DNA from: an uncultured Alphaproteobacteria bacterium
GTDB taxonomy: Bacteria; Pseudomonadota; Alphaproteobacteria; RF32; CAG-239
NCBI GenBank assembly: GCA_944392255.1
Contig: CALXVY010000002.1
Span: 11,106-75,105, forward strand
Length of the DNA: 64,000 nucleotides
Reading direction: 5' to 3'
Each line of letters starts with the position of its first letter. Within the stretch, counting starts at the first letter, position 1. This document shows positions 10,592-56,169 of this stretch, one piece after another. The notes below the pieces were generated by a model. It made no database searches. It had not been told where the DNA came from and saw only the letters and a list, made by a program, of their open reading frames with translations. Position numbers and translations under genes: made by a program.

Positions 10592-11208
10592 TTCAATCTT
10601 TCTCCCAAGCAAACAACCGCATCTTTAGTCAATACCAATTTGTCTTTTCTCAAGATGTCGTATACATTGGCACCAATTGTCGGCAATACATCAACGCCGA
10701 TAATGTTTCTAGAAGCCAATGCAAAGTTTTCATCAACTTCTTTACCATCGATGAACAAGCAATTTGTCAAACCGCAAGCTGCCAATTTGTTTTGCAAATC
10801 TTTAGTTTTCGGAGCAGACAATTTAGCTTCGTCAATGATAACGAGATTACCCTCTTTAGCTTTAGCAGAGAGAGCAGTTTTCAAACCGAGTTTTCTAAAC
10901 TTCTTGGTCAGTTCGTGTGAGTGGTCGCGAACAACCGGACCAAATACAACACCACCTTTTCTAAACTGAGTACCTTTGCGAGAACCTTGACGAGCATTAC
11001 CAGAACCTTTTTGTTTGAAAGGTTTAGCAGGTGTCAAAGCAACTTCGCTACGGCCTTTGGTTTTGTGGTTACCAGATTGCAATCTGGCCAACTGCCAATT
11101 TACAACGCGGTGTAAAATGTCAGCGCGAACTTCCAAGCCGAAAATAGACTCGTCGAGTTCGATTGAACCAACATTTTTATTATCTAAATTTAAGATGTCC
11201 TGTTTCAT
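10588..11208 (-). CDS. rplD: 50S ribosomal protein L4
   Basis: 206 aa; [24 protein letters not shown]... Confidence 0.9.
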
Positions 11209-12019: not shown

Positions 12020-12331
12020 TTACAATTTGATTTCTACATTAACACCAGCAGCCAAATCAAGCTTCATCAAAGCATCAACTGTTTGCGGTGTCGGATCTAC
12101 GATATCAAGAAGTCTTTTGTGAGTTCTGATCTCGAATTGTTCACGAGATTTTTTATCTACGTGCGGAGACATATTTACAGTAAACTTCTCAATTTGAGTA
12201 GGCAGAGGAATAGGTCCTCTTACATTTGCCCCGGTTCTTTTGGCAGTGTGCACGATTTCTTTGGTAGAAAGGTCGAGCAAACGATGGTCAAAAGCCTTGA
12301 GGCGAATTCTGATATTTTGTGTTTCCATCAT
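12020..12331 (-). CDS. rpsJ: 30S ribosomal protein S10
   Basis: 103 aa; ...[14 protein letters not shown]... Confidence 0.95.
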
Positions 12332-12711
12332 TTTAAATTTTATTCCTATAACTAGACAGTAAAATTTTATTCATAAAAATTTAGATGAGTAAAATCTTAC
12401 CATCTAAAATGTTAAACTCAACAAATCATTGAAAATCAATAACTTGTGTTATGGTTTATATCGCAATCTTGGGAGTGATTCGCTCACCTATCCTTGATTG
12501 CAGTGGCTTTGTAACATAATTGAGTCTAATTTGCAAGCAAAAAATTGCATAATTTTGCATTTTTTTAAAGGCTTAAAAGCTTATCCAGACTCTTTTTGAG
12601 TCCGGTTGACAAAATTTTTAAATTCGAGTCTATTTTTTGTAGAAAAATCAAAAATTTATGGAATCGATTCAATGGGTTAACCAATTTTTAAGAATCTCAT
12701 TGGCACAAAAA
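12332..12711 (-). promoter_or_regulatory. S10-operon upstream/leader region with repeated GAGTC-containing motifs
   Basis: 380-bp non-coding stretch upstream of rpsJ containing TTGAGTCTAATTT (12521), GACTC (12587), GAGTCC (12598), TTCGAGTCTATTTTT (12623). Confidence 0.35.
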
Positions 12712-12743
12712 AAGCATCTCACTTAGCTAAAAGTGAAATGCTT
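12712..12743. terminator. repeated terminator-like hairpin, copy 1 (AAGCATCTCAC-loop-GTGAAATGCTT)
   Basis: 11-bp stem (one mismatch) with loop TTAGCTAAAA, A-run upstream and T-run downstream; immediately 3' of ACP-like gene 1. Confidence 0.55.
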
Positions 12744-12753
12744 TTTTATAATC

Positions 12754-13134
12754 TCATTTCTTGAACCAATAACGCTCAAAAATGTCATAAAAGTCCGCAA
12801 CGGTTTTAATATTCTCGTAATCTTCATCTGAAACAGTTTTACCATATTTTTTTTCACAAGACATAATAAAATCTGTCATTAGCAAAGAATCCGCTCCTAA
12901 ATCATCTGTAAAAGAAGTTTCTTTTGGAATAACAGGTTTCTGGTAATCGAATTTCTTAACCACTAAGACCCCACCTGTTGGATAATAGCCTGATTCTACT
13001 CTAATTTTACAATACTTTTCAACACGTTCTCTGTCATAGCGACTGAAATAATCATAAATGAGTTCTTTAGCCTCTTTAATCATTTTAGGATTATAAGCTC
13101 TTTCCGGCTGCGACTTTTTCTCTAAATTTTCCAT
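12754..13134 (-). CDS. acyl-carrier-protein-like domain protein with N-terminal extension (about 127 aa from MENLEKK)
   Basis: C-terminal ...FTDDLGADSLLMTDFIMSCEKKYG... matches the ACP phosphopantetheine site (DLGADSL); about 60 aa of unknown N-terminal sequence; the longer ORF upstream is probably not translated. Confidence 0.5.
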   Translation of the reverse strand: MENLEKKSQPERAYNPKMIKEAKELIYDYFSRYDRERVEKYCKIRVESGYYPTGGVLVVKKFDYQKPVIPKETSFTDDLGADSLLMTDFIMSCEKKYGKTVSDEDYENIKTVADFYDIFERYWFKK

Positions 13135-13215
13135 AAAATAATATTTTTTAGAATTAATAATCAATTGAATTACCGCCAATTTAACCACAAATCATTCAAG
13201 AGTCAAACAAAAAAA

Positions 13216-13247
13216 AAGCATCTCACTTAGCTAAAAGTGAAATGCTT
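13216..13247. terminator. repeated terminator-like hairpin, copy 2
   Basis: identical 32-nt element AAGCATCTCACTTAGCTAAAAGTGAAATGCTT, preceded by AGAGTCAAACAAAAAAAA. Confidence 0.55.
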
Positions 13248-13256
13248 TTGTTATGA

Positions 13257-13694
13257 TTACAATCCCAATTTTTGCAAAACCAGAATCTGAACATCTTCGA
13301 CGGTTTCAACTTCTTCAAATTCTTCGTCATCAATCTGGATACCAAATTCTTTCTCCAAATGAATCATCAATTCAACTTTTTCTAGACTTTCATAGCCCAA
13401 ATCATCTTGCAAATTTTCTTCAAGTTTTAAATTCCAAGCATCTATCCCTACAAGATCACCGATATGTTTGTTTATTTTATCGACAACATCTTGGTGTAAC
13501 AAAGTCTTTTGAGGAGTTTTTTCCGCTTCAAGGCTTGAATTTGTTTTAAACAAAATTTCTGCCTCATCACATAAATTATCAGAAAATTGAGTTTTCAAAC
13601 TTTCAGGAAAATTAACTTCCAACTCTTGCTCCAACGCAGAAAACATATCTGCAACTTTTTGTTGGATTTTACGTTCTAATTGAGACTTTTTCAT
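13257..13694 (-). CDS. acyl-carrier-protein-like protein with N-terminal extension (about 145 aa from MKKSQLERK)
   Basis: C-terminal 75 aa align along their length to ACP (...IGDLVGIDAWNLKLEENLQDDLGYESLEKVELMIHLEKEFGIQIDDEE...); Ser retained at the attachment position. Confidence 0.55.
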   Translation of the reverse strand: MKKSQLERKIQQKVADMFSALEQELEVNFPESLKTQFSDNLCDEAEILFKTNSSLEAEKTPQKTLLHQDVVDKINKHIGDLVGIDAWNLKLEENLQDDLGYESLEKVELMIHLEKEFGIQIDDEEFEEVETVEDVQILVLQKLGL

Positions 13695-13770
13695 AAAATA
13701 ATGTTTTAAATTAATAATCATTTGAATTATTGGTACTTTAAGCTGGCGCTGATAAAGAGTCAACAACAAA

Positions 13771-13802
13771 AAGCATCTCACTTAGCCAAAAGTGAAATGC
13801 TT
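13771..13802. terminator. repeated terminator-like hairpin, copy 3 (one substitution in loop)
   Basis: AAGCATCTCACTTAGCCAAAAGTGAAATGCTT preceded by AAGAGTCAACAACAAAA. Confidence 0.5.
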
Positions 13803-13810
13803 TTTCATCA

Positions 13811-14116
13811 TCAATCAGCAGAACTCTTACGCTCATGAAGCGCAGTCAAAATTTTTCCAACTCTGGTATCAAGATATTCTGCTGTCCACCCGCATGATAC
13901 TCTTTCATAAACACAAACAGCATTCTCTTCAAAAAAATCAATTGCCTCATCAATCTTATTGGGAGGCATTGAAGCTGCAATTTTCTGAAGAGGTTTATTT
14001 CCATGTTGTTTCAGCCAACGAGAGACAATGACGTCTTTTCCCAAAAGCAAGGCAATTTTTTGAAAAAAATTTCTATCTTGCAAATGCATCACAAAAATGA
14101 ATTTTCCAATTTCCAT
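13811..14116 (-). CDS. hypothetical protein (101 aa), paralog A
   Basis: paralogous to the adjacent ORF (…NFFQKIALLLGKDVIVSRWLKQHGNKPLQKI vs …NWFEKIALFFGRDLIVSHWLKQYQGKTIEEI); no recognised domain. Confidence 0.5.
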   Translation of the reverse strand: MEIGKFIFVMHLQDRNFFQKIALLLGKDVIVSRWLKQHGNKPLQKIAASMPPNKIDEAIDFFEENAVCVYERVSCGWTAEYLDTRVGKILTALHERKSSAD

Positions 14117-14128
14117 AAATGCAAAATT

Positions 14129-14434
14129 TTATATTGTTTTAATGTCTTTTTCTAACTGCTTTCGACGTTGACGAATACAAACAAAACAAGTTCTGACTCT
14201 CACATCAATAAAAGCATTATCATTAACATAAGAAGCAACATAAGCTGCATTTCGGCCTAAAAACCCCACAGCTTGATTAAGTTGATTTTCATTCATGTTT
14301 GCAAAAATTTCTTCAATTGTTTTACCTTGATATTGTTTCAACCAATGAGAAACAATTAAATCTCTACCAAAAAACAATGCAATTTTTTCAAACCAATTTC
14401 TGTTTTCAATGTTTTGAATAGCAAATTTTTTCAT
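14129..14434 (-). CDS. hypothetical protein (101 aa), paralog B
   Basis: same length and about 40 percent identical to paralog A; 12-bp gap to paralog A suggests co-transcription. Confidence 0.5.
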   Translation of the reverse strand: MKKFAIQNIENRNWFEKIALFFGRDLIVSHWLKQYQGKTIEEIFANMNENQLNQAVGFLGRNAAYVASYVNDNAFIDVRVRTCFVCIRQRRKQLEKDIKTI

Positions 14435-14509
14435 AGCAAAATAATTAAGAATAAATAACTAATTTTCATAAAAAAAATAAAAAAGATTTCTTAAAGAGTC
14501 AAACAAAAA

Positions 14510-14535
14510 AAGCCGCCTCGATAATAAAGCGGCTT
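14510..14535 (-). terminator. terminator hairpin after nadE
   Basis: AAGCCGCCTCGATAATAAAGCGGCTT preceded by AAAGAGTCAAACAAAAAAA. Confidence 0.45.
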
Positions 14536-14553
14536 AAAATTGAGAGAACAAAA

Positions 14554-15333
14554 TCAGATTTTCAAAATCTCGGGCATTTGTTTGCGCTTAAACGCCATTT
14601 TATGATATTGCTTAATCACCCAAGCAACGATTTTGGCATCATGTCCCAGCGCCACAATCTCATCTTCTGTTTTCTGTTCATCGAGATACTGATGCAAAAT
14701 AGCATCCAAAACAGAATACGGCGGCAAAGAATCCTCATCTTTCTGCCCGTCACTGAGTTCAGCTGAAGGTGCGCGATTAATCACTTCTTCGGGGATAACA
14801 TAACCTTGCTGATTGCGCCAGCGCGCCAAATCAAAAATCAAAGTTTTATATAAATCACCAATCGGCAACAATCCGCCGCAGACATCACCATAAAGCGTGC
14901 AATATCCCATCGCCGCTTCCGACTTATTACCGCAAGCCAAAACCAAAGCGCCGTTCTGGTTGGAATAGGCCATCAAAATTTTACCGCGCTCTCGCGCTTG
15001 CAAGTTTTCCATAACCAAATTTTTCGGCTCTTGACCAAAGGCTTGAGTGAGAAATTGCTTTTGCGCAACAATAACCGGTTCAATATCCAAAATCTGATAA
15101 GCAAAGCCGTTCAAATCGGCAAGTTTTTGCGCAATCTGCAAGCTTAAATCCGAAGTATGTTTAGTTTTCATCATCAGACAAGATACATTTTCTTTGCCCA
15201 AAGCATCACAAGCCAGCACTGAAACCAAAGCAGAATCCATACCACCCGACAACCCCAAAATCACTTTTTTAAAACCATAACGCTGACAATAGTCTTGCAA
15301 ACCCTTTTTCAATTTGTTCCAAATCTTTTCCAT
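14554..15333 (-). CDS. nadE: NH3-dependent NAD+ synthetase
   Basis: 259 aa; PP-loop ...VILGLSGGMDSALV...; no glutaminase domain. Confidence 0.85.
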   Translation of the reverse strand: MEKIWNKLKKGLQDYCQRYGFKKVILGLSGGMDSALVSVLACDALGKENVSCLMMKTKHTSDLSLQIAQKLADLNGFAYQILDIEPVIVAQKQFLTQAFGQEPKNLVMENLQARERGKILMAYSNQNGALVLACGNKSEAAMGYCTLYGDVCGGLLPIGDLYKTLIFDLARWRNQQGYVIPEEVINRAPSAELSDGQKDEDSLPPYSVLDAILHQYLDEQKTEDEIVALGHDAKIVAWVIKQYHKMAFKRKQMPEILKI

Positions 15334-15337
15334 AGTC

Positions 15338-16816
15338 TTATCTCCCGAATTGATTTTGATAATGTTGAATCAAAGCTTGTTGTTTTTGATAAAGCGGCGC
15401 GTTCATACCCACACCGTAACGATGCGGATTGTGCAGACGTTTATATTCTTCCGGCAAAGCTTGCAAATTACGCATTGTGGCTTGCTGAATTTCGCTAAGC
15501 GGACGATTTTTGTGCTTTTCATCTACCTTACCGTTTTGTACCACATCTTGCAACAACAATTGCGCCTGCGTTCCAGCTTCAAAGTGCCTCGGCGCTAGGG
15601 TTTTATCTTGCAAATGATAAGATAGCAAAGGTTTAACTAAAACCCCATTTTGCAAATAATCCTCATCTTGAGAAACAACCACGTCACCATTATATTTCCC
15701 GTCTTGAAGCAAGCGGATGATATTAGTCTTTCCCGGGATGGAGGTTTTATCTCCCGCTACTTTGATTTTATCTGTACCTTCATAATTTTTGGTTTTATAA
15801 ACACAACCCAGCGCCGGCATATCATCGGCACGCACTAACTTGGTACCAAGCGCAAAACTGTCAATCGGTGCTTTTTGTACTTTGATTAAGTCTTCGATAA
15901 TGTATTCATCCAAATCATTTGAAATAATGATTTTGGTTTGCTTCATTCCGGCATCATCCAAAAGTTTGCGTGCTTGCTTACTCCAATAAGCCAAATCACC
16001 GGAATCAAGACGAATACCCTTGAGCGGAATTTTGGTTTCTTTGCTTGCTTTAATCGCGTTCAAAATACCTTGTCTGGTTTCATAAGTATCGGGAAGCAAA
16101 ATGCCGTCATAAGGATAGGTTTGCAAATAGGCTTTGAAAGCATCAACCTCATTTTCAAAAGACATAATCCAAGAATGCGCCATTGTCCCGACCGGCGGAA
16201 TATGATAAGTCTGTGCAGCTGCCACATTAGATGTTGCCACACATCCACCGACAAATGCCGCACGTGTTGGTGAAAAACCGCCCTGCTCCATCGCCCGACG
16301 TAAACCAAACTCCATCACCGGTCTTTTGATGCCGTCAGATTGCGCTGCATAAACCGCGCGTGCTGCTTTGGTAGCTACTGTATTTTGCGAGTTGAGAATA
16401 TTTAACAACGCCGCTTCCACCAATTCCACCTGCCAGTTTGGTCCACTGATACTATAAAGCGGCTCTCCAGCAAAAACGAGTTCTCCTTCCGGCACGGCTT
16501 TCACATCAACTTGCAATTTTTGACTCCTAAGTGCGGTTAAAAAATCTTTAGAAAAAAGCGGTTCGCCATTGCTGTTTTTTTGTGCTGCTAAATAGGAGAT
16601 ATCTTTATCGGTCACTTGCCAATTTTCCACCCACTCGAGAAATTCACCCAATCCGGCAGAAACGATATAACCGCAATCTTTGGGCATTTTTCTAAAAAAA
16701 GCCTCTGAGGTTTTATGCTCATTTTGCTTGCCGGCAGCAAACCATCCGCCGCTCATGGTCAAATGATAAAAATCGCACCACAACAAACTGCCTTCATTAA
16801 TCAAATTTTGTCTCAT
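15338..16816 (-). CDS. pncB: nicotinate phosphoribosyltransferase (long-form, eukaryote-type)
   Basis: 492 aa; blocks LLWCDFYHLTMSGGW, VKAVPEGELVFAGEPL, MEFGLRRA, GTMAHSWIMSF, IRLDSGDLAYW, LGCVYK align to the long-form NAPRT family, not to NAMPT. Confidence 0.8.
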   Translation of the reverse strand: MRQNLINEGSLLWCDFYHLTMSGGWFAAGKQNEHKTSEAFFRKMPKDCGYIVSAGLGEFLEWVENWQVTDKDISYLAAQKNSNGEPLFSKDFLTALRSQKLQVDVKAVPEGELVFAGEPLYSISGPNWQVELVEAALLNILNSQNTVATKAARAVYAAQSDGIKRPVMEFGLRRAMEQGGFSPTRAAFVGGCVATSNVAAAQTYHIPPVGTMAHSWIMSFENEVDAFKAYLQTYPYDGILLPDTYETRQGILNAIKASKETKIPLKGIRLDSGDLAYWSKQARKLLDDAGMKQTKIIISNDLDEYIIEDLIKVQKAPIDSFALGTKLVRADDMPALGCVYKTKNYEGTDKIKVAGDKTSIPGKTNIIRLLQDGKYNGDVVVSQDEDYLQNGVLVKPLLSYHLQDKTLAPRHFEAGTQAQLLLQDVVQNGKVDEKHKNRPLSEIQQATMRNLQALPEEYKRLHNPHRYGVGMNAPLYQKQQALIQHYQNQFGR

Positions 16817-16817
16817 C

Positions 16818-17441
16818 TTAAATCTCCTTTACCCCTTTAACCAAATTGAACTGACATTTTTTCTCATTCAATGCCATGCGAAAAAACTGCTTTGAAGTCA
16901 TCATCTTGAGATACCCCTTTTCAACTGCTTTTTGATAAGCCGGCTGTTGGATGATTTCGGGCATTTGTTGGTTTGCTCCCATGCACAAATCTTCCAGAAC
17001 CGTGACCTTAGCACCACGGCTCAAAAATCCGTTCATTGCTTGCTTCACACAAATATCGGAAAGCACGCCGCAAAGATAAACTTCTTTGCCTTTCCAATCT
17101 TGTTGCAATAAGGCATAAGTCTTTTCTTCGTTCCACAAATTGGTGGTCGATTTATAGAGATTTATAACAGGGATATTGTCCTTAAATTCGGCAGCCTTTT
17201 GCCAACCCCAAGTGCCGTAAATGGTATGAGGCGGAAAAGATTGTGCTTCTTTGGTTTCGGGATAAGTTTCAGCAAAATGTGTGTCCGCTGCATCAATAAT
17301 TTGCGAGAACATTCCTTTTTGCAAAGACTGGTTAAATTGTTGATGTCTTGCAATCAACTCGGGATTATTAATGGTGAGGTTACCGTTTTCGGCAACAAAA
17401 TCGTTCTGAAAATCTATGCGAACTAAAGTGCGTTCGTTCAT
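16818..17441 (-). CDS. pncA: nicotinamidase / isochorismatase-family cysteine hydrolase
   Basis: 207 aa; N-term LVRIDFQNDF and catalytic-Cys region LCGVLSDICV typical of PncA-like hydrolases; sits between the NMNAT and NAPRT genes. Confidence 0.65.
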   Translation of the reverse strand: MNERTLVRIDFQNDFVAENGNLTINNPELIARHQQFNQSLQKGMFSQIIDAADTHFAETYPETKEAQSFPPHTIYGTWGWQKAAEFKDNIPVINLYKSTTNLWNEEKTYALLQQDWKGKEVYLCGVLSDICVKQAMNGFLSRGAKVTVLEDLCMGANQQMPEIIQQPAYQKAVEKGYLKMMTSKQFFRMALNEKKCQFNLVKGVKEI

Positions 17442-17475
17442 TGTTTATACTCCTTAGGCTTATCAGGTTAATCAA

Positions 17476-17514
17476 GCGACCTCTCTCCCATAAGCCCTGC
17501 GGAAGACCAAGGTC
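17476..17514 (-). promoter_or_regulatory. GC-rich conserved motif, copy 1 (CCATAAGCCCTGCGGAAGACC core) in the nadM-pncA spacer
   Basis: second copy at 18198-18228 shares the core YCCATAAGCCCTKCGGAMGACC; stands out in an AT-rich region. Confidence 0.3.
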
Positions 17515-17527
17515 GATAAATAAAAAT

Positions 17528-18070
17528 TTAGATAATTGCTTTTCTTTTGTAAAAATGATCTTCAATCAACTGGTAATTTTCCGGATGAATAAAGTTTTTC
17601 CAGCGTTTATCGCCAAACTTAATCATATCGCGCACCATGGTACCGGTAACAAAGGGAAAATCCTCAGACGTGCGGTCAACATATTCAATATTTTGAAAAG
17701 CCTCTTTGAACCAATGCGCATCATAAGAACTACCGGCATAATAAACATCGGGACGTCCAAGTTGCGGCAAACTTTCGTTCATAAAGTCTAAAACATATTC
17801 TGCCCATTCAGCCGGATTGTTAATATCAAACAAACCAATGATTTTTAAGCGCGGATAATCAGGAGAATTACGATAGACATTTTGAATCATCTTTTTGCGC
17901 GTGGTGTAGTTGAGAGGGTTGCGCTCTGTTCCTTGTTCTTGAATAGAACCCAAGATGATGGTTACTTGTGCACATTCTTTAAGCATACGGTCAATCAAAC
18001 GGGCATGCCCAATGTGGAAAGGCTGCGCGCGCATAATACTTAAACCATGTTGATATTTATATTCAGACAT
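17528..18070 (-). CDS. nadM: nicotinamide/nicotinate mononucleotide adenylyltransferase, archaeal/NadM type
   Basis: 180 aa; nucleotidyltransferase motif IMRAQPFHIGHARLI (HxGH) and overall resemblance to archaeal NMNAT. Confidence 0.7.
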   Translation of the reverse strand: MSEYKYQHGLSIMRAQPFHIGHARLIDRMLKECAQVTIILGSIQEQGTERNPLNYTTRKKMIQNVYRNSPDYPRLKIIGLFDINNPAEWAEYVLDFMNESLPQLGRPDVYYAGSSYDAHWFKEAFQNIEYVDRTSEDFPFVTGTMVRDMIKFGDKRWKNFIHPENYQLIEDHFYKRKAII

Positions 18071-18585: not shown

Positions 18586-19776
18586 CTATTTCAAGATTTT
18601 AGAAACCACACCAGCACCTACAGTGTGACCACCTTCACGAATAGCAAAACGAAGACCTTCGTTCATTGCAATCGGGTGAATCAATTTTGCTGTCATGCGA
18701 ATGTTATCGCCAGGCATTACCATTTCTGTACCTTCAGGCAATTCAATTGCACCGGTTACATCGGTGGTACGGAAATAGAATTGAGGACGATAGTTTGAGA
18801 AGAACGGAGTATGACGACCGCCTTCTTCTTTGGTCAAAATGTAGCATTCGCATGTGAAGTCTGTGTGCGGAGTAATGGTGCCAGGAGCTGCCAATACTTG
18901 TCCACGTTCAACTTCTTCTCTCTTGGTACCGCGGAGCAATACACCGATGTTATCGCCGGCTTCACCTTCATCCAACAATTTACGGAACATTTCAATACCG
19001 GTACATGTGGTTTTTTGTGTCGGTTTAATACCTACGATTTCGATATCATCACCTACGTGCAATACACCTCTTTCTACACGACCGGTTACAACTGTACCAC
19101 GACCAGAGATTGAGAATACGTCTTCAATCGGCATCAAGAACGGTTGATCTTTCGGACGTTCCGGTTGCGGAATGTAGCTGTCTACAGCTTTCATCAATTC
19201 TACGATTGAATCGTGACCAATTTTCGGATCGCCGTTTTCCAATACTGCCAATGCAGAACCTTTGATGATTGGGATTTCATCGCCTGGGAAGTCATATGAG
19301 CTCAACAAATCTCTGATTTCCATTTCAACCAAATCCAACAATTCTGGATCGTCTACTTGGTCTACTTTGTTCATGTATACTACCAATGCCGGCACACCTA
19401 CTTGACGAGCGAGCAAGATGTGTTCACGTGTTTGCGGCATCGGACCATCTGCTGCTGATACAACCAAGATTGCACCATCCATTTGAGCTGCACCGGTAAT
19501 CATGTTTTTAACATAGTCAGCGTGGCCCGGGCAGTCTACGTGTGCATAGTGACGATTCGGGGTTTCATATTCTACGTGTGAGGTGGAAATGGTAATACCG
19601 CGTGCTTTTTCTTCAGGAGCTTTATCAATTTGATCATATGCTGTGAAGCTTGCACCACCCTCTTCTGCCAATACTTTGGTAATTGCAGCTGTCAAGGTTG
19701 TTTTACCGTGGTCTACGTGACCAATCGTTCCAATGTTGCAGTGAGGCTTATTGCGCTCAAATTTCTCTTTTGCCAT
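18586..19776 (-). CDS. tuf: elongation factor Tu (complete copy)
   Basis: 396 aa; [15 protein letters not shown]..., DCPGHADY..., NKVD...; stop CTA at 18586-18588. Confidence 0.97.
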
Positions 19777-33895: not shown

Positions 33896-35128
33896 TTAAG
33901 CCATCTGTTGAGCATTCAATCGTTTTTTAAGAGCAATATATCGGTTCATATCAAACGATTGTATTCTTTCTTTGTTAACTGATTGTGGCGCAATTGAGCT
34001 TGTTTGTCTACCTCTAAGTTCATTTATCCTCTTAATAACATCAGATTTAGACTGAGATTGTATATTTTTCTGTAAAATTTCTTCGCTCATACTATAATCA
34101 GGAACAAAAGATTTGACCCCGAGCTTATACAAAATCTTATCGGGAACATCTTTGTCACGACGTCTATACTCGAGCACAGCCCCACAAACATTACGTCGGA
34201 TTTGTTCTTCTTCGGTGAAATACCCATGATTTTGAGAAGTATTAGCCACCTTAACCAAGTTCATCATTTCCATATGCTTAGCATAGGCCTCTGACAAGGC
34301 ATTATCAGGATGAATTCTATTAAGGAAGCGCAAATCATTAGCCCGACGCAACATATATTCTTGATAACGTTGCTTACGAAGCTGGTTAGCTTTATCCATC
34401 TCATCTACAGCAGCCATAGCAATCAAGGTTTGAGCCATCATCAAACTTGCTTTATATTCCATATCAGAATAAAGAGTTTTATTATCCTCTTGCTCAATCA
34501 TACGCTGATATTCTAAAGCCAAACGTTTTTCCTCTTCTTTGGCCTGACGTTCAGCCTCAGCTTCTTCGCGGCTTTTAGTTGAAGCAATAACCGCGCTGCG
34601 AAGTTGCTGAAGTTTAGCAAGTTTTAACTGCAAAAAATCAAGACGTTCTTTAGCTTTTGAAGAATTAGATGCGGCATACAAAGCCATATAGACACGCATT
34701 TCAGTTTCACGCTCATCCAAAGTCGACAAGAAATTTTCACGAAAATCTATATCGGCATCCGTTATATTGCCATCAGTCATATCATGAATGACTTTTCCTG
34801 CATCTTCAATCCAATAAAAATATTCATTCTGGGGAGCAACTTCATTTTCAATTGATTGGATGGAATTAGCCACAATAAAAGCAAAATCTTCCAAATTTTT
34901 ATCAAGAGGAAGGTTTTCTCCATCAACGACACGTTTTAATACTTCTTTAGCTTTTTCTTTTTCCGGACCTTTCAAATCGGGACGAGCACGCTCAACTCCT
35001 TTTTCAATAATGTCCATTTTTTTCTTTTCTTTTTCAGGATTTTTTCGAGTAAGCTCTGCTTTTGAGAGCTCTTTTTTATCTTTATCCTCGGAAGAAGAAA
35101 TGCCTCTAAGTTCCTTAATATCAACCAT
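33896..35128 (-). CDS. hypothetical highly charged coiled-coil protein (410 aa)
   Basis: K/E-rich N-terminus (KEKKKM, KEKAKE), central ...REEAEAERQAKEEEKRLALEYQRMIEQ...; no TM, signal peptide or known catalytic motif recognised. Confidence 0.5.
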   Translation of the reverse strand: MVDIKELRGISSSEDKDKKELSKAELTRKNPEKEKKKMDIIEKGVERARPDLKGPEKEKAKEVLKRVVDGENLPLDKNLEDFAFIVANSIQSIENEVAPQNEYFYWIEDAGKVIHDMTDGNITDADIDFRENFLSTLDERETEMRVYMALYAASNSSKAKERLDFLQLKLAKLQQLRSAVIASTKSREEAEAERQAKEEEKRLALEYQRMIEQEDNKTLYSDMEYKASLMMAQTLIAMAAVDEMDKANQLRKQRYQEYMLRRANDLRFLNRIHPDNALSEAYAKHMEMMNLVKVANTSQNHGYFTEEEQIRRNVCGAVLEYRRRDKDVPDKILYKLGVKSFVPDYSMSEEILQKNIQSQSKSDVIKRINELRGRQTSSIAPQSVNKERIQSFDMNRYIALKKRLNAQQMA

Positions 35129-42068: not shown

Positions 42069-42225
42069 ACTTAAAAATATTAAATTAAACAATAATAAAT
42101 AAACTTTTTTTACTATATAAACAATGATTTTCTTGTCAACACCAAAATTTAGACAAAAAATATTTACGAACAACAAAAAATGGTGTATGATACATTCATA
42201 TATAAACAACAAGAAGGACAATGAC

Positions 42226-44265
42226 ATGGCAAAAAAAAAGCAAAAACGCAAAGTTGCTAAAGAGTTTGAAGTACATTCTTCTGAATTTCCTCAAAAACAA
42301 GTAAAGAAACAAAAAACCCCTACTTTAACCTTGGAAGATCGCGTCAATAATGAATTTGATGAAATGGCTGTTTCTGTAGCCTATGGCAAAAACGAAGGAG
42401 AAAAACTCAAAGCCATCCGCTCTTTCAATACCTTTATCGACAACAATGTTCCTGCCGAAGAGAAAGACAAAATCAAAGCTCTGGTTGAAGAAAGATTAAA
42501 AGATAACGACTTTATCTATGGTAGTGAATTTATCGATTTAACTCCTCTCAAAGAATATACTGATCGTTTGTTTGAAGAACGCAAAGTTGCTAAAGAGTTT
42601 GAACCTCATTCTTCTAAAAAGGTTAAAGAAACAAAAAAATCAAAGAAAAAAGAAACATCGGAAAATCTTGCTGATGTCGTTAAATCAGTTAAAGATAATG
42701 CCAATAATACGCTTGGCGGAATTTTGGGCGGATTAGCAGAAAATGCGGCTAAAAGAGAAGAACATAAAATGCCTCGTCCAAATCCAAATAAAGAAGCAGA
42801 AAAAGCTCTTCACCAAGCCTTACTCGATGGCATTGCTAATGAAGAAATCAAAAACATCAAAGGTTACAGCAATGATGATTTGAAAAAAATCTTAGAATAT
42901 CATGACAAACTTCTTTATGCCGATGATGGTAACGGTACGGCTTTAGAAAGTTTATATGATAACAGCATTGCCGATTTGAAAAAATTTGCCGAAGGTAAAG
43001 TATCTATTGATAATGATAGCTACGAAACAATGATGCAATTCATCAAAACTTTTGGTACTAACTCTAAAGGGCAATTACTTCCGGAAGGCAAAGCTGCTTA
43101 TGATAAATTGATGAATTTAATGGCAGAACAACAAAAACAAAAAATTCTTGCCAACAAAGAAAAATATCAAGCTCATGCTGAAATCGTCAAGAATGTTCAA
43201 AATCATGCCAATAATACATTAGCTGGAATTTTGGGCGGACTAGCTGCCAATGCGGCTAAAAGAGAAAAGGCTGCTACAAACAGCGCCACCTCAACAACTA
43301 CGCCGAAAACAACTAAAGAAGAAGCTCCGACAGAATTTGCTATCGGCGACGAAGAAGCTAAAGACACAACAAAAGTAATCTTGAAGGAAAAACAACATCA
43401 GGAACCCCAAAAAAACGAAAACAAAACATATATTCCGGTAACTCCAACTTCAGCGACAACCAATAAAAATTCATTTACACCAGAAAACACAACCAATGAA
43501 ACCCCCAAACCGCAACCGGAGGAAAAGAAAAAAGGTTTCTGGGGCAAGACAAAAGATTGGCTTAAGGATAAATGGAAAAAAATTGCCGCTATTACTGCAT
43601 TAGCTGCTGCCGCTTTGCTTTTACCTAAAAGTTGCGCCGGCAATGGTAATAATGAAAATAAAAACCAAGACAGAGATATACCGGAAAAAACCACAGTCAT
43701 TCCGTCAGATTCTATTGCTAAGCCAACTCCTGCAGATACTTTACAGTTGACCCCGCAAGACTTAAGCAATGGTTTCTATCTGGAACGTTCTGCCGGCTTC
43801 AAGGGTGAACAAGAAGGTATCAGTTTCAAAGATGCTGAAAAAGCCAATAAACAAGACCTCTTGACCATCAAACGTCTAATGGCTCAAAAGAAACTGGATA
43901 TAAACAAATTCAAACGTCATACAACCTCACAAAATAAAGAACCGATTACGATAACGGAAATTGCATATAAAATGCGTGTTGTAATGCAAAACTTCCCCGG
44001 TTCTAAAATTGCAAAAAGTATGGAAAATATCTTTTCCGGCAAAGTTAGCGAACGTGATCAAAACAACCTCTATGGAGCTTTTACGCATATCAATGATTAT
44101 GGTCAATTAATTGACCGTAATGGCAAACCAATAAACACCATAGATATGGAAAAAGAAATCAGTGCTGAACGTTTTGGAAAAGGTAGTGAAGAATATGGCA
44201 CGGAAGGCACCGATAATAACTTTATTCAAGTTTTGAAAAAGCATAAAGATATCTTAAGTAAATAA
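42226..44265 (+). CDS. hypothetical bitopic membrane protein (679 aa) with internal sequence repeats
   Basis: duplicated blocks RKVAKEFE(V/P)HSS and ANNTL(G/A)GILGGLA(E/A)NAAKRE(E/K); single TM helix IAAITALAAAALLLP at about residue 470; K/T/P-rich linker; no known domain recognised. Confidence 0.55.
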   Translation: MAKKKQKRKVAKEFEVHSSEFPQKQVKKQKTPTLTLEDRVNNEFDEMAVSVAYGKNEGEKLKAIRSFNTFIDNNVPAEEKDKIKALVEERLKDNDFIYGSEFIDLTPLKEYTDRLFEERKVAKEFEPHSSKKVKETKKSKKKETSENLADVVKSVKDNANNTLGGILGGLAENAAKREEHKMPRPNPNKEAEKALHQALLDGIANEEIKNIKGYSNDDLKKILEYHDKLLYADDGNGTALESLYDNSIADLKKFAEGKVSIDNDSYETMMQFIKTFGTNSKGQLLPEGKAAYDKLMNLMAEQQKQKILANKEKYQAHAEIVKNVQNHANNTLAGILGGLAANAAKREKAATNSATSTTTPKTTKEEAPTEFAIGDEEAKDTTKVILKEKQHQEPQKNENKTYIPVTPTSATTNKNSFTPENTTNETPKPQPEEKKKGFWGKTKDWLKDKWKKIAAITALAAAALLLPKSCAGNGNNENKNQDRDIPEKTTVIPSDSIAKPTPADTLQLTPQDLSNGFYLERSAGFKGEQEGISFKDAEKANKQDLLTIKRLMAQKKLDINKFKRHTTSQNKEPITITEIAYKMRVVMQNFPGSKIAKSMENIFSGKVSERDQNNLYGAFTHINDYGQLIDRNGKPINTIDMEKEISAERFGKGSEEYGTEGTDNNFIQVLKKHKDILSK

Positions 44266-44323: not shown

Positions 44324-44848
44324 TTATTGCGAAACGATAGTCGGTTGAATATTCGGTTCTGTTACTGTTGAAACATCATTTATCGGATAAGCCTGAACAT
44401 CAATGATATCATTTCCCGATTGATAAAGTTCATTTTCAATACGTGTACTCGGTTGAGGTAAAGCCAATTCTCCAGGTTGCAAAATACCTTGCTGACTTTC
44501 TTGTTGAATAGGTTTAATTTGCGGCGTTGCCGGCATAGGATTATTAGAGCTCTCAGAGGGCTTTTCTTGAGAAGGAAGATTGTTTTCCGGAGCCAAATTT
44601 TGAGAGGATTGAGAAACATCTTCTTGCGTATCTAAAGGACTTCCCAACGGATTAGGGGCATCTGCACTTTGTTCTACAAAGTCCGAATTTACACCACCGC
44701 TCGCATTAGCTGCCGCACCAAAAACTTCTGTCGGTGTAGAATTAATCTGCATATCTTCTTGCATCGTTACAGTATCTGTTATGTTTTGAGCCAAAGCACT
44801 TGTACTCAGCAAAACCAAAGCAGATGTACATAATAAAATTTTTTTCAT
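44324..44848 (-). CDS. hypothetical secreted low-complexity (S/Q/P/N-rich) protein
   Basis: signal peptide MKKILLCTSALVLLSTSALAQ; remainder compositionally biased. Confidence 0.5.
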   Translation of the reverse strand: MKKILLCTSALVLLSTSALAQNITDTVTMQEDMQINSTPTEVFGAAANASGGVNSDFVEQSADAPNPLGSPLDTQEDVSQSSQNLAPENNLPSQEKPSESSNNPMPATPQIKPIQQESQQGILQPGELALPQPSTRIENELYQSGNDIIDVQAYPINDVSTVTEPNIQPTIVSQ

Positions 44849-44974
44849 TTTCCCTCCTAAATCAAATTGTTCTTATATAAGATAATCCTGATTTAAGTTG
44901 TTTCAAGCAAAAAACAAATTATACAAAAAAGATTCCCAATGACTTTGAGAATCTTTTATAAAATTAAACATAGA

Positions 44975-45433
44975 TTAAAAACTTGCTTTGCAAAGTAAAA
45001 ATGAACACATTTCGCGACGCTTTTGCGCCAACAATAGCAAGCGCCACAATATAGCATAAAACATCTGCATATTAAGCTCATTCATACTACAATTTTCAAA
45101 CTTTTTAAGCTTATAGCAATCATACTTTTGTTTTGCAAAATCAATCAAACTGGAAACATCATAAAAAGACAATAAATCTACGATATCACTGTCTCTGGAA
45201 GAACCCCCAACTTTCAATTGTTCAATAATGTTTTTAACGATACATGATGGAAAAATATAAATATTCCATGATGCATCAAATTTTTCCAACTGATTAATTC
45301 GCCTCTGTCTCTGTAAATTTTCACACAATCGCCAAAATAATTTCTTTTTCATAAAAATAACATTTATAATTAAAACCTTTTCAAAAGTATAAAGAAAAAT
45401 AAAATCAAAACAAGAAAAAAAATTAAACAACAA
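44975..45433 (-). CDS. hypothetical protein (126-152 aa)
   Basis: ORF immediately downstream of rpoC on the same strand; likely start MKKKLFWRL...; no motif recognised. Confidence 0.35.
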   Translation of the reverse strand: MLFNFFSCFDFIFLYTFEKVLIINVIFMKKKLFWRLCENLQRQRRINQLEKFDASWNIYIFPSCIVKNIIEQLKVGGSSRDSDIVDLLSFYDVSSLIDFAKQKYDCYKLKKFENCSMNELNMQMFYAILWRLLLLAQKRREMCSFLLCKASF

Positions 45434-54293: not shown

Positions 54294-54779
54294 TCAAATA
54301 GTCGCGTGTTCTTTTTTTTCAGCATACCATCGAGCATCATGACCGTAATTATCTTTGGTATCAGCCTTCAGCCCGCTTTTCTTTAAGAGCGCATCTACGA
54401 TATTTTTAAATCCGAACCAAACTGCATGTATAAAAGCTGTTCTTCCGGAATCATCTTGTGCATTGATATTAATATTTGGCTTTTGCAACAAGGCGTTTAC
54501 AACTGCTATATCGCCTTTAACGCAAGCCCAAATAAGAGCTGTGTTCATCTGCAAATCAGCAAAATTATAATCAATACTTGGATGATTTAATAAGTAAAGA
54601 GCAATTTGAGTATACCCTTTATGAATAGCCCAAATAAGAGCCGTTTTTCCATTATGACCAACATAATTAATGTCGAGTTCTGGCACTGTCTCTACAAAAT
54701 ACTTAACCAGTTCGAACTCTCCTTTTTTCACAGCATCAATAAAGTGCTTGTGAATTTGATTTAATAATACTTTATCCAT
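54294..54779 (-). CDS. ankyrin-repeat protein (161 aa, about 4 ANK repeats)
   Basis: GKTALIWAIHKGYTQIALYLLNHP... / NTALIWACVKGDIAVVNALLQ... / GRTAFIHAVWFGFKNIVDALLK... ANK consensus (TALhxAxxxGhxxhVxxLL). Confidence 0.85.
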   Translation of the reverse strand: MDKVLLNQIHKHFIDAVKKGEFELVKYFVETVPELDINYVGHNGKTALIWAIHKGYTQIALYLLNHPSIDYNFADLQMNTALIWACVKGDIAVVNALLQKPNININAQDDSGRTAFIHAVWFGFKNIVDALLKKSGLKADTKDNYGHDARWYAEKKEHATI

Positions 54780-54858
54780 AGCTACATAAAAATTAAAATA
54801 TAGGGTGAAAATATATTTTTTTCTTAAAAAGTCAAGTTTTATTTAAAACAGAATAAGG

Positions 54859-56169
54859 TTATAAACTATAAGAATCTTTTTTGTTTAAAATCATCTTTTC
54901 GGTGGGTGTCAACTCTTTCACGTCAGACTTAACAACAAATTTTTTGGCAACTTTTTTAGGCACTGAACGTCCAGATAAAATCCTTAACAAATTCACAGCA
55001 TCTTTGCTCTGATTCCCTGGCATTTTTTCACTTATATCTTTGGCGCTATCAGGTGTCATACCAGTATAATACAAAGTCAAATCATCTGCCTTCTTTTGAA
55101 CTTCCGGAGATAATGGGACAATATTTTCAGAAAGATATTTTGAAAAATTTTCAACACTTATACCTTTTTGTTTCAAAATCTCATTATCTTTAAGACCATC
55201 AAAAATTAAATCAATTCTTTTAGCAAATTCTTTGTCGTTACCAATAGCCAAACTTGCAGCATCATATTTATCACACTTTGTTTCCATAGAGCCCACTATC
55301 TGATTAGAATATATAGACTGATAATTATTTTGCCACATCTGGCAAACTCCTTGTACCATTTGCTTATTAAAATCATTTTTATTCATCTTTTCTTTTTGAA
55401 AAAGCAAATCTTTATAAAAAGCAAAATTTTTAAACTCATTTTTTTCAAAAAGCTGTAATGCTTCTTGTTGTGGCACGCCTTGCTTAATCTTATCTTGATA
55501 AGCCTTGTCTAGCAACAAAAGCTCAGCCATCTTAGAAGATATTTCATCATATTGATTGAGCATTCCATATTGAGCAACAGACAATCCCGGAGCATAAATA
55601 TTATTTTTATCATTTGTCATATGCTGTACTTCATGGGCTAAAAGAACATTATTCTCAAGTGTATTGACATCATTATAGTTACTCAAAACCTCTTTCACAT
55701 GCTGTACTTTCTTATTCTGTTCATCTAAAGACAAATGTGCATAATTTTGTTCAACATAAGCTTTAATATCTTCATCATTCTCGGTTTGCACATAATTCAT
55801 AGTTACAGTTTTTTCAGAAAAATCATAACTTCCAACGAGTTTATTATCAGCAAATTCATTAAAAGGAATAGTATCCATTTTCACAGAAAAATCCGTTGCA
55901 AAAGCCTCTTTCTGCTCATCATAATAAGACTTCAAATCTTCTTTAACATCACTATAAATATTTCCATGGACAGGCTGCCCATTTATTGAAGTATAGATAT
56001 TATCTCCTTCTAAAACCTCTTGAATAACAGCCTGTTCTATCTTATCTTGCTTTTGTTCTTCTATTTTGGGCTCTGTTTGAGCATAAGCCACTTGCGAAGA
56101 CAAAGCCATACCCACAACAGTTGCCCCGTTTTGTTTCTTAAAAAAATCCTTCAGCTTATCCCAAACCAT
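54859..56169 (-). CDS. hypothetical protein with HExxH motif and possible N-terminal signal peptide (436 aa)
   Basis: ...NNVLLAHEVQHMTND... zincin-like HExxH; N-term MVWDKLKDFFKKQNGATVVGMALSSQVAYAQ hydrophobic stretch ending in AYA. Confidence 0.5.
   Translation of the reverse strand: MVWDKLKDFFKKQNGATVVGMALSSQVAYAQTEPKIEEQKQDKIEQAVIQEVLEGDNIYTSINGQPVHGNIYSDVKEDLKSYYDEQKEAFATDFSVKMDTIPFNEFADNKLVGSYDFSEKTVTMNYVQTENDEDIKAYVEQNYAHLSLDEQNKKVQHVKEVLSNYNDVNTLENNVLLAHEVQHMTNDKNNIYAPGLSVAQYGMLNQYDEISSKMAELLLLDKAYQDKIKQGVPQQEALQLFEKNEFKNFAFYKDLLFQKEKMNKNDFNKQMVQGVCQMWQNNYQSIYSNQIVGSMETKCDKYDAASLAIGNDKEFAKRIDLIFDGLKDNEILKQKGISVENFSKYLSENIVPLSPEVQKKADDLTLYYTGMTPDSAKDISEKMPGNQSKDAVNLLRILSGRSVPKKVAKKFVVKSDVKELTPTEKMILNKKDSYSL

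Follow-up and report, generated by a model that had tools for sequence, protein, structure and literature searches.

We analysed 64,000 nucleotides of contig CALXVY010000002.1 (assembly GCA_944392255.1, an uncultured Alphaproteobacteria bacterium; positions 11,106 to 75,105, hereafter the window), in which two genes for proteins resembling acyl carrier proteins (ACPs), here called ACP-A and ACP-B, lie between nadE and rpsJ. What lies between nadE and rpsJ is an array of autonomous gene cassettes that varies from strain to strain. Each cassette consists of a sigma-70-type promoter, an A/T-rich leader, a small lineage-specific gene or a pair of such genes, and an intrinsic terminator that is strong and has the same stem from cassette to cassette. 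Both ACP genes are real and under moderate purifying selection, and both are dispensable: in close relatives they are reordered, replaced by longer variants, devoid of the attachment serine, pseudogenised or absent. The reading that we favour, with a probability of about 0.5, is that the ACP fold serves here as a docking or adaptor module to which a lineage-specific second interaction surface has been added, the copies that bear the serine probably still being modified.

An earlier note on this DNA had described both proteins as ending in an ACP fold with the attachment serine retained, and this description holds. Both genes lie on the minus strand in the open reading frame (ORF) listing of the window, and both products score above the gathering score (20.8 bits) of the Pfam PP-binding model PF00550, give a four-helix bundle in AlphaFold2 and Foldseek comparisons, and keep the serine (S83 in ACP-A, S103 in ACP-B). 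ACP-B (13257-13694, 145 aa, beginning MKKSQLER) scored 38.5 bits and carries its serine in the motif DLGYES103L (codon 13386-13388). The AlphaFold2 model (pLDDT 82) places helices at residues 5-25 and 31-56, a disordered linker at 56-66 and a four-helix ACP at 67-143. A PDB profile search of ACP-B gave a match confined to residues ~66-144, and Foldseek against the PDB returned TM-scores (TMt) of 0.82-0.90 among the 20 best matches, up to 0.94, over 70-80 residues. The ACP domain has a charge of -16, like Escherichia coli AcpP, and a canonical AcpP-like acidic helix II; in the PDB profile search it was nearer to bacterial ACPs (Thermus thermophilus ACP, 50.3 bits) than to the best mitochondrial complex I ACP (7arc_U, 44.6 bits). 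The N-terminal domain had no PDB match and no Pfam match. We considered that this domain might be a degenerate half-ACP arising by internal duplication, for which there were weak BLAST hints (E-values 0.18-1.9), and rejected the idea when hhalign against the ACP-domain profile returned a probability of 1.3%. As modelled, ACP-B is thus a novel helical-hairpin domain joined by a flexible linker to a canonical acidic ACP domain.

ACP-A (12754-13134, 126 aa from a conserved ATG, beginning MENLEKK) scored 33.9 bits against PF00550 and has its serine in DLGADS83L (codon 12886-12888). The AlphaFold2 model (pLDDT 78, pTM 0.69) has residues 1-15 disordered, ACP helix I at 16-33, and helices II-IV after the attachment motif; loop I contains an insertion of ~30 aa which AlphaFold2 and Foldseek together predict to form a beta-hairpin at 42-67. 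In Foldseek searches of the PDB, ~105 ACP-A columns aligned to bacterial ACPs of ~76 aa (TMt 0.72-0.82, ten best matches), and the alignment therefore spans the insertion. The protein is near neutral in net charge, with a pI of 5.65. On the strength of this model, we describe ACP-A as an ACP fold interrupted by an insertion in loop I. The unrelated N-terminal extension of about 60-70 aa that had been ascribed to both proteins is consequently real for ACP-B (65 aa), and for ACP-A gives way to ~15 disordered residues plus the loop-I insertion. Long ACP-A variants of 216-222 aa occur in related loci (L011 5923-6573, L013 4054-4713 and L017 1083-1751). These variants gain ~95 residues at the N-terminus, made up of a helix that is hydrophobic or amphipathic (LLKMLKLFVQDFAFFC), a short strand and a linker that is acidic and disordered, and some of the variants have lost the attachment serine.

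The two proteins can be called paralogues, as they had been, only loosely: their identity is 37% over 43 aa, either protein is about as near to E. coli AcpP as to the other, and their coding sequences have no detectable DNA similarity. Many NCBIfam ACP models match both proteins, all below their curated cut-offs; TIGR00517 gave 41.7 bits for ACP-A and 50.7 for ACP-B (cut-off 70.45), and NF002148 gave 58.2 and 60.7 bits (cut-off 71). With PF00550 above threshold and the NCBIfam AcpP equivalogs (TIGR00517, NF002147-51) below cut-off, we assign both to the ACP superfamily and not to the housekeeping AcpP orthologues. Genomic context agrees with this assignment, as the neighbours are nadE and rpsJ and not a fab cluster (fabD-fabG-acpP-fabF), and the genes are not universal in relatives. 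A tblastn search found no canonical acpP, AcpS or Sfp in the window.

The DNA that ACP-A and ACP-B share lies outside their coding sequences. A 38-nt hairpin, AAAAAGCATCTCACTTAGCTAAAAGTGAAATGCTTTTT, is present in three copies at <=1 mismatch (starting at 12709, 13213 and 13768) and nowhere else in the 64 kb, with none expected from shuffled sequence. The first copy, at 12709-12746 on the minus strand (repeat family D1, inverted repeat I9), closes the ACP-A cassette, ends in a U-run and is followed by a 420-nt region of S10 leader and promoter; its RNA folds with -20.3 kcal/mol in sense (z = -5.6) and -16.6 in antisense. The second, at 13213-13249 on the minus strand, closes the ACP-B cassette, was found by the terminator scan as 15 pairs followed by T9, and folds with -18.8 kcal/mol in sense (z = -6.0) and -14.9 in antisense. 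The third, at 13768-13805 on the minus strand, closes the cassette of a 101-aa gene pair, not an ACP gene, and has a sense energy of -21.9 kcal/mol (z = -5.9). In each sense-strand RNA a stem of 15-17 bp precedes a U-run and is 4-6 kcal/mol more stable than the antisense form, which is weaker because a G.U pair becomes A.C. The U-run and the bias in stability toward the sense strand identify the hairpin as the terminator of the array genes. Rfam holds no RNA family for the hairpin or the leader, giving only sub-threshold chance matches, and a search of JGI metagenomes with the hairpin pattern returned only unrelated terminators with no ACP gene nearby.

Directly 3' of each hairpin, and also of the different terminator of nadE, stands GTTTGACTCTT, which supplies the promoter in the form TTGACT-N17 followed by TAAATT, TAAAGT or TATTTT. 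The ACP-A promoter and leader module (13135-13212, minus strand) has a -35 TTGACT at 13206-13201, a -10 TAAATT at 13183-13178 and the leader block TAATTCAATTGATTATTAAT at 13172-13153. The ACP-B module (13695-13767, minus strand) has a -35 TTGACT at 13763-13758, a -10 TAAAGT at 13740-13735 and the leader block TAATTCAAATGATTATTAAT at 13729-13710. For the 101-aa cassette the promoter module (14435-14553, minus strand) begins with the nadE terminator hairpin (14535-14510), which has a different stem, and continues with the same -35 element, GTTTGACTCTTT (TTGACT-N17-TATTTT, 14502-14474). The leader block TAATTCAATTRATTATTAAT is found in both ACP modules (two occurrences, 0.14 expected), and an A/T-rich leader having no Shine-Dalgarno sequence leads to the ATG in the ACP cassettes. 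The modules of ACP-A and ACP-B are 77% identical over 123 nt (~13127-13249 versus 13687-13804), and the hairpins of the two ACP cassettes are 92-94% identical. DNA identity is high in modules and hairpins and undetectable in the coding sequences, which places the likeness of ACP-A and ACP-B in their flanks. Two earlier proposals, that each gene has its own conserved upstream block and that promoter, gene and hairpin form a cassette, are thus borne out, the first by the DNA identity of the modules and the second by the repeated TTGACT-N17 promoter and the 38-nt hairpin at each ACP gene.

The modules were delimited by promoter scan, intergenic alignment and leader block search, and the ACP-A module recurs in relatives. 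In related loci L001, L002, L010-L013 and L017 every cassette ends in the stem GCATTTCAC...GTGAGATGC, whose loops vary and whose changes keep the pairing, and the next cassette opens with the same -35, -10 and leader block. The leader block was also considered as a translated peptide ('IQLIIN...'). We rejected this since an in-frame TAA precedes the ATG in the ACP-B cassettes of L010 and L011 and protein conservation, too, begins at the annotated Met.

The gene content of the array differs from strain to strain. Read in gene direction, with 101 denoting a 101-aa gene, A and B the ACP genes and A' a long ACP-A variant, the window and L001 have 101-101-B-A, and the partial contigs L004-L006 agree as far as they reach. 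L002 has orphan ORFs followed by 101-101-B-A, with no nadE within the 1.6 kb assembled upstream. The 101-aa pair is missing from L010 (A-B), from L013 (A'-B, with an A' of 219 aa, as in L014) and from L011, which like L012 has B-A'-C, where A' is 216 aa with the serine replaced and C is a gene of 243 aa. L017 has a 72-aa ORF, then B (147 aa) and A' (222 aa). A lone ACP-A pseudogene, with ACP-B absent, is found in L018-L021 (including GCA_949285685.1), and in L022 a 225-aa ORF is followed by an ACP-A gene frameshifted in its DSL motif. Two lesions mark the pseudogene of L018-L021, a TAG in place of codon 9 and a frameshift of -1, and four independent assemblies share both in identical form. The reading frames of the ACP genes are intact in many independent assemblies. 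Across all the related loci the S10 protein is 100% identical and NadE 94-100%.

Hairpin loop variants mostly travel with the upstream gene, while a promoter-spacer variant is sometimes common to unlike genes of separate strains, a pattern that suggests recombination within the modules. The array would on this account be reshuffled by ordinary homologous recombination between the ~110-nt intergenic modules, with no site-specific recombinase involved. Among L010, L011 and L013 the ACP-B alleles are nearly identical to each other (dS, the synonymous divergence, 0-0.024) and the adjacent nadE genes differ at dS 0.28-0.50; these sequence comparisons suggest a recent exchange between lineages of the ACP-B cassette or of the segment proximal to S10.

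Adjacency to the NAD salvage operon, for which the earlier note had seen no known pathway that includes stand-alone carrier proteins, looks positional and not functional, because the L002 array has no nadE in the 1.6 kb assembled upstream and L016, a more distant relative, has a family member at another locus. In that stretch (L016 7422-11689), close to efp and rpmE, a 305-aa EF-Tu-like ORF and a pair of orphan genes precede the gene of the 538-aa family member. The protein has two N-terminal motifs, acidic repeats and three ACP-like domains, and its gene ends with a related terminator hairpin. The array looks to be placed at a hotspot between two conserved operons, its adjacency to NAD salvage being one of position.

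To assess selection we compared the window with L010, L011 and L013. For nadE the nonsynonymous divergence (dN) is ~0.03 and dS 0.33-0.50, giving dN/dS of 0.04-0.09. The whole ACP-B gene has dN ~0.22, dS ~0.48 and dN/dS ~0.45, its nonsynonymous change being ~7-fold faster than that of nadE. Split by region, ACP-B has a dN/dS of 0.33-0.40 in the N-terminal domain and 0.35-0.37 in the ACP domain, and one of 1.4-1.5 in the linker; the low values in both domains and the high value in the linker show this to be a real two-domain protein under moderate constraint. The ACP-B alignment has 56 invariant columns, which cover most of the N-terminal domain and do not include the attachment serine. That serine is kept in 13 of 15 ACP-B family sequences and replaced in the other two; in the ACP-A family 10 of 15 sequences keep it and five are without it, one of these by frameshift. 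The substitutes across both families are R, P or D.

The family is small. A word-indexed search of 5.8 billion proteins found 14 relatives for each ACP protein, all from metagenomes or metagenome-assembled genomes, and a full HMMER search of 1.84 billion representative proteins with a profile of the ACP-B N-terminal domain found 10 proteins. The relatives show no Pfam family besides PP-binding, and the wider search brought up one GTDB species genome. In more distant relatives, of 243-538 aa, there are two copies of the N-terminal motif, linkers of acidic repeats and between one and three ACP-like domains; in these larger proteins the inner ACP-like domains are degenerate and the last one keeps DDLGADSL. 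No relatives of the family were found in IMG/VR or in JGI metagenome contigs.

In the reading that we favour, the ACP fold would dock proteins that bind ACPs, as an adaptor, a regulator or a decoy, and the N-terminal domain of ACP-B or the insertion of ACP-A would supply a second interaction particular to the lineage. The copies that bear the serine, as do those in the window, are probably still phosphopantetheinylated, and carriage of intermediates would not be the function that the family conserves. A conserved role as a pathway carrier is argued against by the lack of a nearby enzyme partner, transcription as solitary units, fast evolution, loss of the serine and decay of the genes. Several points weigh on the other side. 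The loop-I insertion of ACP-A is modelled at low confidence (pLDDT 54-66). The cognate 4'-phosphopantetheinyl transferase (PPTase), acyl-ACP synthetase, polyketide synthase (PKS) or nonribosomal peptide synthetase (NRPS) could lie elsewhere in the genome, of which the analysis covered contigs. The DSL motif is kept in the majority of both families, at the 13 of 15 and 10 of 15 given above, and likewise in all C-type proteins whose C-terminal ACP domain is complete (P0041, P0042, P0044 and P0046); together with the AcpP-like charge and helix II of the ACP-B domain, this means that modification, and hence real carrier activity, may matter. Finally, the recombination mechanism is drawn from mosaic patterns in a handful of assemblies.

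An alternative, which we think possible but unlikely, is that ACP-A and ACP-B are genuine 4'-phosphopantetheinylated carriers that move acyl or peptidyl intermediates in some accessory pathway not yet recognised, with its enzymes encoded at other places in the genome. In its favour, both window copies bear the serine and pass the PF00550 threshold, the ACP-B domain combines a canonical helix II with the charge of -16 of E. coli AcpP, and most homologues, including every C-type protein with a complete C-terminal domain, retain the serine; extra specialised ACPs are moreover known in alphaproteobacteria (NodF, AcpXL, RkpF). A carrier that docks to several enzymes would, however, be expected to have a dN/dS far below 0.45, and would hardly lose its serine in two of 15 and five of 15 homologues while many other columns stay invariant, or be missing from a close lineage or reduced there to a pseudogene. 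Each gene is transcribed on its own, outside any operon with enzymes, and no fab, PKS, NRPS, PPTase or ligase gene lies near any array examined; within the 64-kb window itself we found no PPTase, acyl-ACP synthetase, fab, PKS or NRPS gene. The earlier proposal, that the proteins are stand-alone carriers for some acyl or peptidyl transfer not yet recognised, had been made to depend on the serine being conserved in homologues and the ORFs being intact in close relatives, and had pointed to a cognate PPTase or acyl-ACP synthetase as the thing to look for. It keeps the ACP fold and the serine of the window copies in its favour and is weakened on the rest, by the serine replacements just given, by the ACP-A pseudogene and missing ACP-B of L018-L021, by an array order and content that shift between strains of identical S10, by a nadE adjacency that looks positional, and by the search of the window, which found neither enzyme nor other partner genes.

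The fast evolution and strain-variable content would also suit ACP mimics directed at a host or engaged in conflict, either exported effectors or intracellular decoys of the ACP partners of a host (for example mitochondrial) or a competitor, with an arms race driving diversity. We hold this to be improbable. The family is restricted to this lineage, its larger members contain degenerate ACP domains in tandem and repeat linkers that are acidic and of low complexity, host association is hinted at by the ankyrin-repeat protein and the several orphan genes of the window, and phages carry orphan stand-alone ACPs that PHROGs places in the class 'moron, auxiliary metabolic gene and host takeover'. 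Yet no signal peptide is visible by eye in the two polar, charged N-termini (no signal-peptide predictor was run), no secretion-system gene was found among the window proteins scanned against Pfam, PADLOC gave no match, overall dN/dS is below 1, and the ACP domains are closer to bacterial than to mitochondrial ACPs (50.3 versus 44.6 bits). An outside chance of about the same size attaches to the bolder form of this idea, an undescribed lineage-restricted family in which the ACP fold is a fast-evolving interaction module, sometimes devoid of the serine and combined with a novel helical hairpin, acting for a host-associated alphaproteobacterium as a mimic or decoy against the ACP-binding network of a host or competitor, and supplied and diversified by a plug-in cassette array that recombination reshuffles beside the S10 operon. 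A phage family as such was considered and rejected, as PHROGs gave only its generic 'acyl carrier protein' family and a few weaker families lacking an assigned function. It is more improbable again that what has been kept by chance between the two operons are junk ORFs, copies of acpP that are decaying or have no function. Pseudogenised copies in some lineages, the low GC of the region (0.325) and a constraint looser than that of the flanking genes are what such ORFs would show; dN/dS of 0.33-0.40 in the structured domains against 1.4-1.5 in the linker is that of a folded and selected protein, and the 56 invariant columns including most of the N-terminal domain, the promoter, leader and sense-optimised terminator kept at every cassette, and the intact frames in many independent assemblies likewise oppose this explanation. 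Least credible of all are integron-like or otherwise site-specifically mobilised cassettes with the hairpins as recombination sites, or toxin-antitoxin or toxin-immunity pairs. Small ORFs between repeated imperfect palindromes, at a fixed chromosomal site and with strain-variable content, do resemble such systems, but no integrase or recombinase gene lies in or beside any array, the hairpin is a terminator with a U-run and a sense bias, and sequence inspection found the attC-type core GTTRRRY to be absent. Each cassette has its own promoter, which integron cassettes usually lack, and the genes are monocistronic and flip their order, unlike toxin-antitoxin operons. A known anti-phage defence system is likewise rejected, PADLOC giving no match at E <= 0.1 for any of six island proteins. 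The polymorphic-toxin survey PMC3482391 makes no mention of ACP-like immunity proteins, and papers that name DUF1493 added nothing on the point.

The surroundings of the array in the window read, in gene direction, tuf, an NMNAT-like gene, pncA, pncB, nadE, the 101-aa pair, ACP-B, ACP-A, a 420-nt leader, and rpsJ with the S10 operon, with the genes from the NMNAT-like one to rpsJ on the minus strand. First is tuf (18586-19776), followed by the NAD salvage operon, whose members were assigned by Pfam: the NMNAT-like cytidylyltransferase (17528-18070), pncA (16818-17441), pncB (15338-16816) and, as last gene and conserved upstream boundary of the array, nadE encoding NAD synthase (14554-15333). 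The conserved downstream boundary is rpsJ (12020-12331), the first gene of the S10 operon, for ribosomal protein S10. The str and S10 operons are adjacent at the tuf/rpsJ junction in many bacteria, and here the four-gene NAD salvage set (14554-18070) is inserted between tuf and rpsJ. The NAD salvage operon is kept in relatives with dS of 0.3-0.5, compared with <=0.05 for rpsJ. The first cassette of the array in the window strain is the 101-aa orphan pair (14129-14434 and 13811-14116). By pairwise comparison the two tandem genes are 33% identical paralogues with a gap of 12 nt. They have no significant match in Pfam, NCBIfam, PADLOC or PHROG, and form 5 clusters in total among the 5.8 billion proteins, all from this lineage. 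At the other end of the array, a non-coding leader of ~380-420 nt (12332-12708, minus strand) lies 5' of rpsJ, and relatives such as L010 and L018 conserve it well. It contains several hairpins and promoter-like hexamers and has no Rfam family match, and could be the promoter and regulatory leader of the S10 operon.

Elsewhere in the window, the minus strand at 54294-56169, where the GC is 0.31, encodes a 161-aa protein with ankyrin repeats (54294-54779) and an orphan of 436 aa without a Pfam match (54859-56169), between the gene for ribosomal protein L10 (56770-57252) and a 1390-aa ORF taken as rpoB. This looks like a second accessory island in a normally contiguous core cluster, and hints at a host-associated lifestyle. 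ORFs of 410, 713, 174 and 152 aa at 33896-35128, 42124-44265 and 44324-45433 have no Pfam match, apart from one sub-threshold Hid1 match for the 713-aa ORF. Our impression is of a genome with many lineage-specific genes.

If the reading of the ACP fold as a docking module is true, these genes would be a clear bacterial example of that fold drifting from strict carrier duty, by way of two new architectures, the domain added in ACP-B being essentially unique to one uncultured lineage (10 of 1.84 billion representatives). The array would also be a variable gene array built without an integrase, in which a standard promoter and leader and a standard terminator double as recombination substrates at a hotspot between core operons. 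Neither point upsets current knowledge, and the practical impact is modest for now.

Among known systems, the AcpP of type II fatty acid synthesis (PF00550; TIGR00517/NF002148-51) has the same four-helix fold with DSL at the start of helix II and, in common with ACP-B, an acidic recognition helix, and bacterial AcpPs are the best matches of both proteins. ACP-A and ACP-B differ from it in falling below all NCBIfam AcpP cut-offs, in the extra domain of ACP-B and the loop-I insertion of ACP-A, and in that the array genes lie outside a fab cluster, are monocistronic, strain-variable and dispensable, evolve with dN/dS ~0.45 and sometimes lose the serine. NodF, AcpXL and RkpF are likewise additional, non-housekeeping ACP homologues in alphaproteobacteria. 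These are plain ACPs of ~90 aa encoded beside dedicated synthases or transferases, whereas the array ACPs have no neighbouring enzymes, novel architectures and a strain-variable presence.

The mitochondrial ACP (NDUFAB1/ACPM/SDAP) provides a precedent for an ACP fold that mainly docks proteins and has an N-terminal extension, and several of its chains are among the PDB matches, although with lower scores than the bacterial ACPs. Its extension is a cleaved presequence and not a folded, conserved domain, and no LYR-type partner was identified here. Orphan phage ACPs (PHROG 5934) are also stand-alone ACP-like genes outside biosynthetic clusters, some with extra sequence, but the IMG/VR search found no relative of the ACP-B family, the locus has no phage genes, and the N-terminal domain was not seen in viral proteins. 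Integron arrays share with this locus a chromosomal site at which a variable series of small ORFs is split by repeated imperfect palindromes; in the nadE-rpsJ array there is no integrase and no attC core, the palindromes are terminators, and every cassette carries a promoter.

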